Source: an uncultured virus (IMG/VR IMGVR_UViG_3300037067_023910) (taxonomy: Duplodnaviria; Heunggongvirae; Uroviricota; Caudoviricetes). From it: DNA of 20,000 nucleotides. Positions within the stretch are counted from its first letter, which is position 1; the number at the start of each line of letters is the position of its first letter. The translations under genes were made by a program, and so were the position numbers. Positions 5,103 to 16,323 of the stretch are shown piece by piece. A model generated the notes under the pieces. That model did no database searches. It saw only the letters and a program-made list of their open reading frames with translations, and was not told the origin of the DNA. The stretch lies in the IMG/VR virus record IMGVR_UViG_3300037067_023910; one strand, 5' to 3'.

Positions 5103-6107
5103 ATGCCGAAAAACAAAAGTGTTTTGGTAGTGTTAATCCTGAGCATAATGTGCTTTGGGGGCCTCTGTTCGTGTACTCGAGGTGAAGCTTATATCATCGA
5201 AATTGAAGGCCAAACGCGGACTAGTGCGTGGTGGGATGATGTTGAAAAATATTTTACCATAACTCATGACGACAGCGATGTCATTTTGATTGGGATAAGT
5301 GACCCGGATGAAGGGGTAGAGTATCCTACGCATTTTACTGGAGCGGCCATTTGGTATGATGAAGATTTAGTAAATCCTGAATTAGAATTAGACGAAAATG
5401 ATTTAGTGTCGCCTGAATTTTTTGTCATCACTGATGACGACGACCCGGTCTATCTTGGAATAGGAAGGACTGACTTGGCAGACAATAGCGAGTTCAATGT
5501 CGAAGTTGTTTATCCAGACAAAATTGAACTGTTTGATCAATTGAGATATTATACGGATGAAAAAGAAAAAACTGCGTATGATGAATCGGTGTTTAGTGGG
5601 GCCGTCTGGGACCATGAATGGTATATTGCATGTTTTTATCAAGTGCATTTAGATGCAGGGCGTTCCTATCAAATTTTTGCGGAAACAGAAGACCATACTT
5701 TGATTGATGAATATGATTGGGGGCGGTTCTTTCTATTCAATGCGGACGGAGATATTAAATGGGCGACTTCAGGAGGGACGAGTGATAATGCTGATGAAGA
5801 GCAAGGGGAAACGATTTTTGACGAAGAAGCCGGGGCCCGCTACATTGGGTGGGGCGAAGGGTCCGAACTTGAGATAGCCACCGAGGGCGATTATTATCTG
5901 GTCGGTATTAATGAATATCAAACCTATCCGGCGATCGACCAAATAGTATTCCGGGATATGACAATCAACCGGTGGAATGAATGTAAAGAAGACGAGCAGT
6001 GTGGAAGTTCGATTGATGGAATACCGCTCTTGGGGATCTTCCTTGCGGGGCTCTGTGGCTTGGGGGGCATTATGAAAATAGTTAAAAAATCACGGTCGTT
6101 TTTTTAA
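5103..6107 (+). CDS. Secreted acidic cell-surface protein with PPC-like beta domain and Loki-CTERM-like membrane anchor
   Basis: Signal peptide MPKNKSVLVVLILSIMC; FYQVHLDAGRSYQI...FFLFNADG...TEGDYYLV (pre-peptidase C-terminal-like); tail SIDGIP + TM helix + KKSR. Confidence 0.8.
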   Translation: MPKNKSVLVVLILSIMCFGGLCSCTRGEAYIIEIEGQTRTSAWWDDVEKYFTITHDDSDVILIGISDPDEGVEYPTHFTGAAIWYDEDLVNPELELDENDLVSPEFFVITDDDDPVYLGIGRTDLADNSEFNVEVVYPDKIELFDQLRYYTDEKEKTAYDESVFSGAVWDHEWYIACFYQVHLDAGRSYQIFAETEDHTLIDEYDWGRFFLFNADGDIKWATSGGTSDNADEEQGETIFDEEAGARYIGWGEGSELEIATEGDYYLVGINEYQTYPAIDQIVFRDMTINRWNECKEDEQCGSSIDGIPLLGIFLAGLCGLGGIMKIVKKSRSFF

Positions 6108-6386: not shown

Positions 6387-7010
6387 CTAAATATAACCGC
6401 TGCCTTGCTTTCTTTTTGGCGTTTCGGGGCTAAAAATAGTCTTAACTTCCACTTGGTTTTTCTGAAGAGCGGAAGCTAACCCAAGCTTATCAACGTCTCG
6501 ACATTGGTGATTATAAGAGACCACCGAGGATTTCAAGTGGAGATCTTTTAAAACCTGTTGATTTTTTTTATCATTGTCTATAGTGAGATCGCCGACAATG
6601 GAGGAGGATTGTTTCGATTTTAAGATATTTGATAATTTTTGAGGTGATATGGAGTATTTTTTATCAAAAGCCGATTTTTTTATCTCGATGTCCATGTCCT
6701 CTAACTGTTGAGTTTTTTTGGGGGTTTTAAAAGTTACCAATATGTTTGTCCAGTCATCTTCATAATCTGTCCGATGCTTTGAAAGCGGTTTTTGGGGCTT
6801 GGGGACCGTTTTTTTAGGTTTTAGTGTTGATGCACTTTTCCGGGCTTGTTTCAAGGCTTCGCCTTTGGTATGATAATCTGCTTTCGTTTTTTCATACACC
6901 TTTTCCAATTGCTGTCGTTCTCGGCCTTTCGCCGCCTTTAACCGCAAACCCATGGCATTCCGTTTGGCTTTGGCCAATTGGTATTCTTGTTCTTTTTTTG
7001 TAAGGGTCAT
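6387..7010 (-). CDS. Lys-rich protein, N-terminal domain paralogous to 7514..7915
   Basis: LTKKEQEY...KAAKGRE...YEKTKADYHTKGEALKQA; SD AGTGA. Confidence 0.75.
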   Translation of the reverse strand: MTLTKKEQEYQLAKAKRNAMGLRLKAAKGRERQQLEKVYEKTKADYHTKGEALKQARKSASTLKPKKTVPKPQKPLSKHRTDYEDDWTNILVTFKTPKKTQQLEDMDIEIKKSAFDKKYSISPQKLSNILKSKQSSSIVGDLTIDNDKKNQQVLKDLHLKSSVVSYNHQCRDVDKLGLASALQKNQVEVKTIFSPETPKRKQGSGYI

Positions 7011-7513: not shown

Positions 7514-7915
7514 TTATTTGCCTTTGTCTTTGGTGTCAACACCCGGGTAGTCAAAACTGCCGGGGTCGTTGGCCCACCGCATGTCGGTGACGACATTTTC
7601 GGACGTGGCTTTACTGTCAGCCGTCCGAGATCGTTTTGATCGATCTTTTTGCAGTTTTTTGGCCACACCTTCCTTTAAGGGAATTTCTTTCAACGGAACT
7701 TTCCCCCGGCGGGCTGCCCGTTTTTCTTTCTTGGGCCCGGCTTTGGCCGCTTTCAGGGCTTCCCCGGTTTCTTTCCAACGTTTTTCGGCGTTTTTTATTT
7801 GGGTCGCAATCCCCGAATTCTCACGGCCTTTCGCCGTTTTTGATTTCTTCTGCAAGTCTTCCAATTTTTTCTTGGCGTCGTAATATGCAGCTTGCTTGTT
7901 CGTAAGTTCTGTCAT
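7514..7915 (-). CDS. Lys/Arg-rich protein, first gene of the basic cluster
   Basis: LTNKQAAY...KTAKGRE...WKETGEALKAAK; conserved-looking tail WANDPGSFDYPGVDT. Confidence 0.75.
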   Translation of the reverse strand: MTELTNKQAAYYDAKKKLEDLQKKSKTAKGRENSGIATQIKNAEKRWKETGEALKAAKAGPKKEKRAARRGKVPLKEIPLKEGVAKKLQKDRSKRSRTADSKATSENVVTDMRWANDPGSFDYPGVDTKDKGK

Positions 7916-9043: not shown

Positions 9044-9267
9044 ATTTTGATCACATTCTTTACAATTATTATAATGATGGGAAAAAAGGAAAAAAAGGTA
9101 TGGAAAGTACATAATTCTATATTAATTTTCAATCACACCCCGAGCCTGGAAATCTGGCCCGGTTAGTGTCGAAAGGGGCCATTACCCCCATTTCAATTTA
9201 CTACATTGTATAGCATAAGTTTCAATCTCAAGCCCCCCGGGGCATGCCCGGGAGGTCTCGTTGAACT

Positions 9268-10037: not shown

Positions 10038-10439
10038 TTAATTGCTTTCGGTGATTTGTTTGCCGGTCCGGGATGAAAACTTTGGAGTGGACTCGTTTTC
10101 ACAATATACAATATGCTCATCTTCAGTGTGGGATGCACATGCATAATGTTCTTCATCACCAAGGTAGCCGGTTTCATTCTCTGAAGTAATTTCAGAGATT
10201 TCATCGCCACAAATGCAACAAAATATTTTATTCGAAGATAATAAATTATGTTGTTCAGCATAAAGCCAAAAATCATCGGGAAATTCACTTACCTCATATT
10301 GCACGAGGTTAATTTTGTCTTCTGCCCGGAGGCAGTCATAAATTCGTTCGGCTAATTCGGCGGAGCCTTCAGAGCCCAGCCCGACGTCAATATAATCAAT
10401 GGCGTCTTGTTTACAGTCGACCATTTTTCGAGTGACCAT
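10038..10439 (-). CDS. Acidic protein with C-terminal Zn-binding motif
   Basis: ATG 10439 after GGTGG; CCICG...CASH; very D/E-rich; lies directly downstream of the hammerhead. Confidence 0.7.
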   Translation of the reverse strand: MVTRKMVDCKQDAIDYIDVGLGSEGSAELAERIYDCLRAEDKINLVQYEVSEFPDDFWLYAEQHNLLSSNKIFCCICGDEISEITSENETGYLGDEEHYACASHTEDEHIVYCENESTPKFSSRTGKQITESN

Positions 10440-10477
10440 ACTATCCACCAATTTTTTTACCTTTAAAAAAAGAGGTT

Positions 10478-10546
10478 TTTTGTTTCGGCCTTGGGACGGC
10501 CCTGGGCAGCGAGGCTCATCAGACCGGGCGATACCCGGTGACAAAA
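10478..10546 (-). ncRNA. Hammerhead self-cleaving ribozyme, type III
   Basis: Minus strand: UUUUG-UC^ACCGGG-uaucg-CCCGGU-CUGAUGA-GCCU...AGGC-C-GAAA-CAAAA; complete core, perfect stems I and III, GUC cleavage triplet (cut between 10540 and 10539); stem II has one extra C. Confidence 0.85.
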
Positions 10547-10565
10547 GGGAGAAAAAACAAAAAGG

Positions 10566-10919
10566 TTAGTCTTCTAAATCGTCTGGGGTCATGTGCCAGA
10601 CATGTTCCCCACAAGACACACAAACTAAGTTTATGCCTCCCTGACCATCGCTTTCTGATCTGATGCGGGTGTCCAAGCAAATTCCCGCTTCCAAATTTGC
10701 TCCGCAAGCAGTCCTATTCTCCATTATTTTCTCGATTTGAAGAACTATTTTTCGCTCTTTTTTATGGAGCGGTTCAGCGAGTTCATGACTACATTTGTGA
10801 CAATATATGGGTTCTAACGCTAAATTATCGCTTGGTTTGCGGACGCCAATTTGAACGCCGCATTCGTGGCAAAAGATTTGAAAATCTTTTGTCCCTTTTA
10901 TAGGTTCAATTGTTTTCAT
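10566..10919 (-). CDS. Double Zn-ribbon protein
   Basis: CHEC, CHKC, CG...CVSC; GTGAATAAAA before ATG. Confidence 0.75.
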   Translation of the reverse strand: MKTIEPIKGTKDFQIFCHECGVQIGVRKPSDNLALEPIYCHKCSHELAEPLHKKERKIVLQIEKIMENRTACGANLEAGICLDTRIRSESDGQGGINLVCVSCGEHVWHMTPDDLED

Positions 10920-12765: not shown

Positions 12766-13639
12766 TTATCTTTGAAGAATATAGTCCGCGGCTTTTTGGG
12801 CCTGTTGAGCTGCGATAATTAACATTTGTTTATCAGATCGAAGGGCTTTGAGCCAATCTTGTAAATACGCGGCATTATGGGCCCGAATTCGGGGAGTGAA
12901 AATCCCAGCTTCGGAACATAAAAAGCTGGCGGTCATTTCTGCGACTAATTCTTCTTTAGAATAATCGTGGCTCCCGAAAAAGCTCGCTTGAGCGACCCCG
13001 GCCCGGTTTAACCGGTCTTTATGCCCGGTCGAATGGCCCGACTCATGAAAAAGAGTCGAATAATAGAGTTCTTCCGAGACAAAAGTCTCTTTTTTCGGCA
13101 TATTAATAAAATCGCCCCGCGGGTTATAGTAAGCCGCTTGCTCTTCATATTGAATTTTCGGGCAATCAGTATAGTTTTTCATTATTTCTTCCGCCAATAA
13201 CACAGGATCGAATTTTTTCATTTCTTCGGGGGCCGGAATTTTATCTGCGGGGATGTTTTCGCATTGTTCCACGTTGAACACGTAGTACACGCGGCAATAG
13301 ATAAACGAATGTTCTTCTTCTTCTCCGCCTTCTTCTTCTCCCTCTGCCTTTTCAGTGGTCTTTTTGCCCCAAAAGGTAATTGGGGTGCCTTTTTCGCCTT
13401 TTTTGACCGACCCTTTCAAATCTTTGGCTTGTTTAAAAGTGAGCCAAAAAGGGGATGAAAAACCTTTGATTTGAGCTGTAAAGGCCAAAATCATAATATT
13501 TGCCCCGCGATAGGGCTTTTTTGAAATTAAATTGGTCGGCATTGAATCGCCAGACCACGGCTTCTCCCAGGGTAACTCCCCGGATTCTTCAATTAATTTA
13601 ATCCATTTCTTCTGTGATTTTTTCGTAAGCTGAGACCAT
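12766..13639 (-). CDS. ardC: ArdC-family antirestriction protein (ssDNA-binding domain + zincin-like MPTase domain), with a one-base frameshift near codon 12
   Basis: LPWEKPW, PYRGAN, WLTFKQA, VKKGEKG, YYVFNVEQ, LFHESGHSTGH (HExxH), YSKEELVAE, AAYLQDWL, AQKAADYI. The N-terminus MVSAYEKITEEM (ATG 13639, SD AGTGA) is out of frame by one base at 13603-13604. Confidence 0.93.
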
Positions 13640-13706
13640 TTTTTATCACTTTTCCCTTGCCTTCTGAAATAGAAGGAACATTAGGGAGTGAATCAGATAA
13701 AAAGTC

Positions 13707-13910
13707 TTAAAAAACGGGGATGGATGGGATTATTGGGAGATATTTCATAAAAAACCATCGATTGTTTCCACACGCGTCCGCGTATTTACCTTGTTTTTTA
13801 CAATGATCTAATTCGGATTGAGAATAACCTAATTCGGCGAGGTCAGAGTCAGACATAATTTCTCGGTCTGTCTCATATTTATAAGAATATTCAAAATAGA
13901 GGAACAACAT
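13707..13910 (-). CDS. Small hypothetical protein (67 aa), first gene of the array
   Basis: ATG preceded by the hairpin at 13922-13957. Confidence 0.6.
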   Translation of the reverse strand: MLFLYFEYSYKYETDREIMSDSDLAELGYSQSELDHCKKQGKYADACGNNRWFFMKYLPIIPSIPVF

Positions 13911-14109
13911 AATTTTTTCCCTTTTCTAATCGTTTTACGACAAAAGCGATTAGAAAAAAGAAAAATTAATTTTCTAACAATCTAGCTCGATCGATTGTAA
14001 AAACAAGGGTCATTTTTCGGGTTAGAGAACAGACAAGTTCGCGATCGTAAAAATAACGTACAATTATCGTAGAGTTTTACAATAGATTGTATATTGTCAT
14101 TTTTGAACG

Positions 14110-15592: not shown

Positions 15593-15794
15593 GATGATTT
15601 AACACTTCGCGACAGAAATGTTTTTTTTAAGTGAAGCCCAGGGGGCCTTTAATATTTGATATATGGTTTGATATCCCCTCTCTTTCTTTGACTTTATCCT
15701 TAACTCAAGAAGAGAAAGGATAGGAATGGAAAAGCCCCTTGGGGAAGAAAAAGGGCTTGAATGGCCCCCACCCCTTTTTCCCTTTCAAATTACA

Positions 15795-15996
15795 AGACCA
15801 TCCACCCCCACCCCCTCCCCGGTCACCCTTGACGGTCAAGCGGGGCCCTTCCAGCCCGTCCTACGGCACGTCGCATAGATTCACCCCGATCAGGGTTTCG
15901 GGCCCCTTTACGCCCCCCCCGCTGCCGCTGGTCCGCTCTCTCTTATACCCTTCCCTGTCCCCTGGATGGGGGGAGGGGATAGGGGGTGGATGGTCT
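15795..15996. repeat. Long C-rich/G-rich inverted repeat
   Basis: AGACCATCCACCCCC-ac-CCCCTCCCC (15795-15820) versus its reverse complement at 15970-15996. Confidence 0.85.
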
Positions 15997-16148
15997 ATTC
16001 GTTTTCCCCCTTTGATAGGAAGCCTTTTTGGGCCCGTGACGGGGGCAAAATACCCCGGTTTTCGCCTTCAAACCCAAGGACGTTTTTTCGAATTCCGAAA
16101 ATATGGGGTGAAAAGCGGTGATTTTCAAGGGTCATATTCTCAAAAAGT

Positions 16149-16323
16149 GGTCTCGGGGAGTCTCAAAATGAAGGCGAAAAACCCATAGAAAAGCCGTGTA
16201 TATGGTAATGAGACTTTGTGAGACTTAAAGTAAGTCTCGGGGAGTCTCAATAAGAGTCAAGAAAATGACAAGAAAACCGAAGATGGGACTCTATGAGACT
16301 CTAAGTAAGTCTCGGAGAGTCTC
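16149..16323. repeat. Iteron/centromere-like array GAGACT-N4-GAGACT-N7-AGTCTC-N4-AGTCTC
   Basis: Full units at 16210-16248 and 16285-16323, half unit at 16149-16164. Confidence 0.9.

Follow-up and report, generated by a model that had tools for sequence, protein, structure and literature searches.

Intergenic hammerhead ribozymes in mobile DNA

Intergenic hammerhead ribozymes have been known since 2011 from prophages, archaea and haloarchaeal viruses (PMC3088659). The same report includes archaeal and archaeal-virus hammerheads just upstream of genes, and the scarcity of these RNAs in archaea, cited in a preliminary description of the present locus, makes the locus look more remarkable than it is. 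In phage-like DNA they flank small, non-conserved ORFs (PMC3088659; PMC6155905). Phage and prophage hammerheads have the full consensus core, lie in sense orientation between small non-conserved ORFs of mobile DNA and near the next start codon, often occur in pairs around a gene, and usually combine a short, regular stem II with a Watson-Crick loop-loop pseudoknot. A second close counterpart is HHphage of haloviruses HF1 and HF2. This archaeal-virus hammerhead lies only 13 nt ahead of the start codon of the gene that follows, and a transcript 5' end has been mapped close to its cleavage site; its activity under standard conditions is reduced by an unusual 1-2 nt insertion in the vicinity of C3 and stem I (PMC3088659).

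Here we analyse a hammerhead-like sequence in a 20,000-nucleotide stretch of an uncultured caudoviricete record (IMG/VR IMGVR_UViG_3300037067_023910), referred to below as the window. Compared with the phage and prophage hammerheads, the candidate has the same complete core, sense orientation, setting between small non-conserved ORFs and proximity to a start codon, but it is single in the window, and its stem II region is 29 nt long and irregular, with no Watson-Crick loop-loop pseudoknot seen. Like HHphage it precedes a gene and is irregular; unlike HHphage, its irregularity lies in stem II, its distance to the start codon is 38 nt, and its host is only probably archaeal. The candidate therefore adds to the known intergenic hammerheads, with the irregular stem II as its unusual feature.

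A type III hammerhead sequence on the minus strand

Positions 10546..10478 form a type III hammerhead sequence for which self-cleavage is predicted. Along the minus strand the order is that of type III, namely stem III, GUC, stem I, CUGAUGA, the 29-nt stem II region and GAAA. Every position of the conserved core is present, both C3-U4-G5-A6-N7-G8-A9 (10522-10516) and G12-A13-A14 (10486-10484). The GUC cleavage triplet occupies 10542-10540 and is accompanied by the A15.1-U16.1 pair; stem III is open, with 6 bp, and stem I is capped and begins directly at N1.1-N2.1. The parts are as follows.

10478..10546, minus strand: the whole type III hammerhead motif, 69 nt, found by a full-length RF00008 match (10547-10477) and by a descriptor scan
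10541..10546, minus strand: 5' strand of stem III, ending in U16.1, forming 6 bp with 10483-10478
10539..10540, minus strand: predicted cleavage site between C17 (10540) and A1.1 (10539), judged by where the GUC triplet falls with respect to stem III and stem I
10523..10539, minus strand: 17-nt hairpin of stem I, made of 6 Watson-Crick pairs, one U.G pair and a loop of 3-5 nt, from sequence reading and the descriptor scan
10516..10522, minus strand: core CUGAUGA (C3-A9), from sequence reading and the RF00008 alignment
10487..10515, minus strand: irregular stem II region, 29 nt, with three possible registers, from folding and alignment
10486..10506, no strand assigned: 11-nt tandem duplication that takes in G12 as well as the 3' half of stem II (Tandem Repeats Finder)
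10478..10486, minus strand: core G12-A13-A14 (10486-10484) followed by the 3' strand of stem III from A15.1 (10483-10478), from the sequence and RF00008
10554..10563, minus strand: U-rich decoy strand that can replace stem III by pairing with 10486-10477, seen in the minimum-energy fold and as an inverted repeat
10566..10919, minus strand: upstream gene, a Cys-rich, zinc-ribbon-like ORFan of 117 aa with weak zinc-ribbon Pfam hits, stop codon TAA at 10568-10566
10452..10471, minus strand: predicted U7/A7 hairpin that separates the ribozyme from the ribosome-binding site
10038..10439, minus strand: downstream gene, a Cys-rich ORFan of 133 aa, with ATG at 10439 preceded by GGTGG at 10449-10445

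A descriptor scan of both strands of the 20-kb window returned 10546..10478 as its single type III-shaped site, and together with the Rfam scan it gives one hammerhead in the window rather than a flanking pair. No other self-cleaving ribozyme family was matched there at E values up to 5. Sequence reading, the RF00008 alignment and the descriptor scan agree exactly with the motif, topology, coordinates and cut between 10540 and 10539 given in the preliminary description. As a separate by-product of the Rfam scan, a plus-strand Guanidine-II match scoring 18.5 bits against a gathering threshold of 32 was rejected as arising from GC-rich hairpins.

The spacer between the two minus-strand genes measures 126 nt and holds the ribozyme in sense orientation, with 38 nt between the ribozyme and the next start codon and the cut site 100 nt ahead of ATG 10439. 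The placement between two zinc-finger genes that had been described is borne out for orientation and for two small Cys-rich genes, of which the upstream one has the weak zinc-ribbon hits. One could argue that the sequence is simply coding and supplies the first 35 codons of a 168-aa protein whose start would be TTG 10544, since the frame is open from 10544 and one public gene call (P0003) takes this extended start. Another call gives 133 aa, however; GGTGG lies 6-10 nt upstream of ATG 10439, while the TTG is preceded by a T-rich run with no ribosome-binding motif, and no homologues back the extension. A coding origin thus has a near-negligible probability. As the preliminary description proposed, the 35 extra N-terminal codons are probably the RNA itself, because ATG 10439 with its GGTGG motif is the likely start and one gene call agrees with it. 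The U7/A7 hairpin at 10452-10471 could be terminator-like or could modulate translation.

Hammerhead ancestry versus chance resemblance

RF00008 aligns the candidate end to end with 28.8 bits. The E value is 1.7e-4 on a stretch of 221 nt and 0.016 when 4227 families are run against the entire window. The covariance-model hit that was called for does exist, but it falls 20 bits below the RF00008 gathering threshold of 48.5 bits, and no match in the window reaches its Rfam gathering threshold. The meaning of such a score was gauged on 15 unique, clean, hammerhead-shaped prokaryotic type III RNAs collected in this analysis. Eleven of them score 49.1, 47.5, 45.2, 43.7, 42.3, 41.1, 40.6, 40.5, 36.1, 35.3 and 20.7 bits, and the other four, textbook AU-rich type III hammerheads (loci L010, L012, L031 and L034), give no RF00008 match at E values up to 10. 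Thus one of the 15 reaches gathering, ten outscore the candidate and five fall below it, including the four undetected ones; three look-alikes without hammerhead shape all lack an RF00008 match. Since 14 of 15 clean prokaryotic type III RNAs also fail, a sub-gathering score does not refute an RNA of this kind. RF00008 is poorly tuned to prokaryotic and viral hammerheads, and its gathering score is a poor test here.

Pattern searches bear more directly on ancestry. The stem I and core pattern of 23 letters, which comprises GUC, both stem I strands and CUGAUGAG, matched three viral loci (L054-L056), and all three are type II hammerheads (RF02276, 30-35 bits). They are identical to the candidate in GUC, the stem I strands and CUGAUGAG, but are circularly permuted relative to its type III order, with stems I and III capped, stem II open and unrelated flanks. 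The stem III and core pattern matched one viral and 24 metagenome loci; one of these, L013, is identical to the window, and the other 24 were compared. A clean stem I hairpin is present in 22 of the 24 and wholly missing in L021 and L022, and the majority of the loci, judged by eye, lie just upstream of a start codon. Pattern matches that are not hammerheads (L021, L022, L036) lack stem I. Other searches were silent: a partial stem II pattern found nine matches in viral contigs, none with an Rfam match at E values up to 1, an exact 47-letter stretch of the candidate is unmatched in species genomes, and its stem I and core string does not occur in the available portion of the Perreault 2011 supplements.

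How easily such a sequence could arise by accident was estimated from 3000 dinucleotide-shuffled windows, in which a CUGANGA...GAAA core that also had a U-H site and 6 bp or more in both stem I and stem III appeared twice (6.7e-4 per window). This frequency is not negligible across a scan of about 250,000 windows, and together with the sub-threshold Rfam match it speaks for a chance resemblance in an AT-rich spacer. The count, however, omits GUC, U7, G10.1/C11.1 and C15.2-G16.2, for which we estimate an additional factor of about 4e-4, and it omits the sense-strand, intergenic placement (the listed ORFs cover 74% of the window, leaving about 26% outside). In the candidate the extended consensus letters and G10.1/C11.1 all agree, the placement is sense-strand and intergenic, the exact stem I and core recur in true hammerheads only, and non-hammerhead matches have no stem I. 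We consider chance a very improbable explanation: the two pattern checks outweigh the shuffle count, and the candidate can with high confidence be regarded as hammerhead-derived.

An irregular, partly duplicated stem II

The stem II region of 29 nt compares with 10-17 nt in 13 unique hammerhead-shaped comparators, 12 of which have at least three contiguous stem II pairs counted from the ends. With stem II capped by the 10.1-11.1 pair at A9 and G12, G10515-C10487 can pair and the next position is C.C, which leaves one contiguous pair before a mismatch. Three registers can be drawn. In register (a), G10515-C10487 is followed by the C.C mismatch, C-G and U.G, with an energy of -16.8 kcal/mol in the hammerhead frame; this is the alignment chosen by Rfam and by MAFFT against the types of L011 and L024. 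Register (b) consists of GCCU/AGGC plus two short inner helices, with one unpaired C adjoining G12; taken alone, the stretch folds in this register at -7.7 kcal/mol, and within the hammerhead frame the value is -20.2. Register (c) is GGCC/GGCC with a 7-nt loop, which abuts G12 cleanly and leaves 14 nt between A9 and G10.1, at -6.3 kcal/mol isolated and -20.9 in the hammerhead frame. Both odd pairings pointed out earlier, GCCU/AGGC with an extra C and GGCC/GGCC, are therefore present in the sequence. The extra length is explained by the tandem duplication at 10486-10506 (11 nt, 1.9 copies, 90% match, score 35), which also created the GGCC/GGCC helix of register (c). In a prediction confined to Watson-Crick pairing, no complementarity was found between the loops of stems I and II, the best duplex reaching -1.9 kcal/mol.

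Irregularities near this junction have precedents. Among the comparators, L023 likewise has a bulged C beside its first stem II pair. The hammerhead of chrysanthemum chlorotic mottle viroid, associated with De la Pena and Flores in 2001, reportedly has an extra base between A9 and G10.1. It would be an active natural ribozyme with an insertion at the core/stem II boundary, as in the candidate, but it has one inserted nucleotide, where the candidate has either 14 nt or a single C on the opposite strand. In tested natural ribozymes described by Perreault et al., cleavage is kept with a stem II of 1-2 bp, with a mismatched first stem II pair (U10.1-U11.1) and with a U inserted within GAAA (PMC3088659). 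The same paper reports that changes shifting the tertiary contacts, such as added pairs or insertions nearby, lower the rate by orders of magnitude, and that some genomic hammerheads are possibly non-functional (PMC3088659). The irregular, part-duplicated stem II of the candidate probably makes it slow, not inactive.

Folding brings in a further difficulty. With 45-nt flanks, the hammerhead-competent fold of the candidate lies 7.8 kcal/mol above the minimum. In 14 controls this gap has a median of 1.65 and runs from 0 to 10.0, and one control is worse than the candidate. The main competitor is a 10-bp helix between the U-rich strand 10563-10554 and 10486-10477, which runs from G12 through the stem III strand and sequesters G12-A14. 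Because the energies ignore core tertiary structure and runs of U and A pair by composition, this competing fold is best read as a mild negative or as a hint of gating.

These observations bear on the main rival to a working hammerhead, namely that the sequence is a relic, once active, which was disabled when stem II acquired the 11-nt duplication and a C that is mispaired or extra, and which is now neutral. The duplication within stem II reaches G12, the stem is a length outlier without any regular register, the competent fold is disfavoured by the energy gap given above, and the losses of rate and of function described by Perreault et al. would fit such decay (PMC3088659). On the other hand, the core, stem I and stem III are perfect and decay is seen nowhere outside stem II; the duplication itself supplies a GGCC/GGCC helix that joins G12 cleanly; the natural ribozymes cited above tolerate a stem II that is short or imperfect; and two comparators are also disfavoured by folding energy (L023 by 5.6 and L028 by 10.0 kcal/mol). 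A relic with a disabled stem II is thus unlikely, yet it has to be taken seriously.

The same competing helix could instead be a control element, in which case the decoy and the duplicated stem II would keep the RNA inactive until a signal arrives. Besides the 10-bp helix, such gating could draw on the alternative stem II registers, which lie within 1.6 kcal/mol of one another, and on the position of the decoy, an oligo-T tract 3-14 nt past the upstream stop codon. Yet composition is enough to make U-runs and A-runs pair, fold z-scores of -1.8 and -1.1 do not stand out, two ordinary comparators have similar energy gaps, and no relatives were found that could show conservation of the decoy. A gated hammerhead is therefore improbable, and a switchable stem II, as suggested in the preliminary description, is speculation, though competing folds exist. 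In a version of still lower probability, a ribosome that reaches the end of the upstream gene would sit on the decoy and thereby release the ribozyme. If so, the intergenic cut would be made only on messages under translation, the duplicated stem II would add a second toggle between GCCU/AGGC and GGCC/GGCC, and in an archaeal host translation and RNA processing would then be coupled in a new way.

Copies and related hammerheads

The sequence recurs without change. L013 is 100% identical over 469 nt, and contigs of groundwater, landfill and sediment runs contain the stretch without any difference, the sediment run as one identical 222-nt piece (10395-10616). The groundwater run is a possible source of the element, and none of the runs listed as carrying the stretch is an RNA run. 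Among these copies no sequence variation was found at the ribozyme. Both flanking proteins also occur on contigs of 20.6 kb and 81 kb; they have no relatives in viral contigs, and none among 5.8 billion proteins apart from the same element. Since all other copies are 100% identical and the flanking proteins lack relatives, covariation argues neither for nor against the ribozyme.

Close look-alikes in form are the L011, L024 and L047 types, on contigs binned to the Candidate Phyla Radiation. They match the candidate in stem III, in the G-N-C-U/A-G-N-C make-up of stem II and in a 17-nt stem I with a 5-nt loop U...G, but their stem II loop is 4 nt with no extra C, while that of the candidate is 20 nt with an extra C. 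No protein similarity was found between contigs of these types and the window. A separate observation from the same searches concerns L049 (G001 contig C9), a Woesebacteria-binned contig with two type III hammerheads on one strand, at 6518-6571 and 7667-7718, 1.1 kb apart. Sister copies on three other contigs show pair-preserving changes in stem I, for example U.G to U-A, and by their sequences L049 and its sisters are a small conserved hammerhead family on Candidate Phyla Radiation-binned contigs.

The carrier and its host

The genes of the window are nearly all on the minus strand and almost all ORFans in Pfam, PHROGs and NCBIfam, apart from a few weak hits. A marker of a mobile element lies 2.2 kb upstream of the ribozyme.

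12766..13542, minus strand: ArdC-type anti-restriction gene, the sole one in the window and a mobile-element marker (Pfam ArdcN and MPTase-PolyVal; PHROG 7245)

The array of ArdC genes in which the ribozyme had been placed does not exist, as only one of the 61 ORFs scanned is ArdC. The relatives of this protein, about 50% identical, are bacterial or phage where named, and an Atlas search with it returned bacterial and phage taxa only; the same search with the 454-aa protein returned nothing.

On the side of an archaeal host, a run of at least five T occurs within 30 nt after the stop codon in 16 of the 34 ORFs of the list, while the share among background windows is 12% (binomial P about 7e-7). 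Most of these T runs have no hairpin before them, a pattern that looks like archaeal-style termination. In addition, the ribosome-binding motifs are of the GGTGA type, and a winged-helix protein has weak hits, mostly to archaeal regulator families. These three features together tip the balance somewhat towards an archaeal host, and the archaeal assignment made previously is thus plausible but not firm: the stem III and core pattern matched bacterial records only among species genomes (archaeal in 0 of 6). The window has no protein similarity, at E values up to 1e-3, to five hammerhead-bearing species-genome contigs. The carrier is an uncultured mobile element, plasmid- or virus-like, whose host is probably archaeal.

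Several other features of the window deserve mention. The ArdC frame runs on upstream of its first ATG (13543-13650, minus strand) and there encodes the conserved N-terminal ArdC motif PWEKPW, with no ATG, GTG or TTG before the next stop; the start may be unusual, or the 5' end truncated or broken, and ArdC homologues have 280-300 aa compared with 258 aa here. Upstream of ArdC, 13906-13973 forms a long, imperfect hairpin. Its arms of 31 nt are 81% complementary and separated by 6 nt, it overlaps the start of a 67-aa ORF, and on both strands it draws weak matches to microRNA precursors; it may be an origin, a terminator or a single-strand promoter. Of the 34 listed genes, just two lie on the plus strand, 15739-16188 and 5103-6107. 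The latter codes for an acidic protein of 334 aa that has a signal or lipobox-like sequence at its N-terminus and, at its C-terminus, a hydrophobic anchor with basic residues behind it; Pfam and PHROGs give no family match for this protein. Finally, a GC-rich palindrome at 9231-9258 lies just downstream of a 139-aa gene, in a spacer that is otherwise AT-rich.

Proposed action and implications

The sequence, topology, orientation and context of the hammerhead can be read directly from the DNA, and from them we infer its transcription, its cleavage and any effects on message stability or translation. Our preferred reading, to which we give a probability of roughly 0.55, is a working but probably slow hammerhead that would cut read-through or polycistronic RNA between the two genes. 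The spacer would be transcribed within such an RNA, stems I, II and III would fold into a three-way junction, and the RNA would cut itself after C10540. The upstream message would keep a 26-nt tail with a 2',3'-cyclic phosphate end, and the downstream RNA would start with a 5'-OH at 10539, 100 nt before ATG 10439, with the folded ribozyme body as its leader. This putative role is the one proposed for prophage hammerheads and for the HF1/HF2 case (PMC3088659; PMC6155905). An active ribozyme is favoured by the intact core, GUC and 6-bp stems I and III, but the oligo-T tracts before it could end transcription in an archaeon. If the two T tracts between the upstream stop codon and the ribozyme are terminators, the ribozyme would be made on read-through RNA only.

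Prokaryotic type III hammerheads are under-annotated in metagenomes, since the gathering score missed 14 of the 15 collected examples. If active, the candidate would be one more intergenic hammerhead in the mobile DNA of an uncultured, possibly archaeal lineage, and it would mean that a hammerhead can accommodate a 29-nt, part-duplicated stem II in which one C is bulged or mispaired. Such tolerance, if true, would be useful for ribozyme search descriptors, which usually reject matches of this kind.
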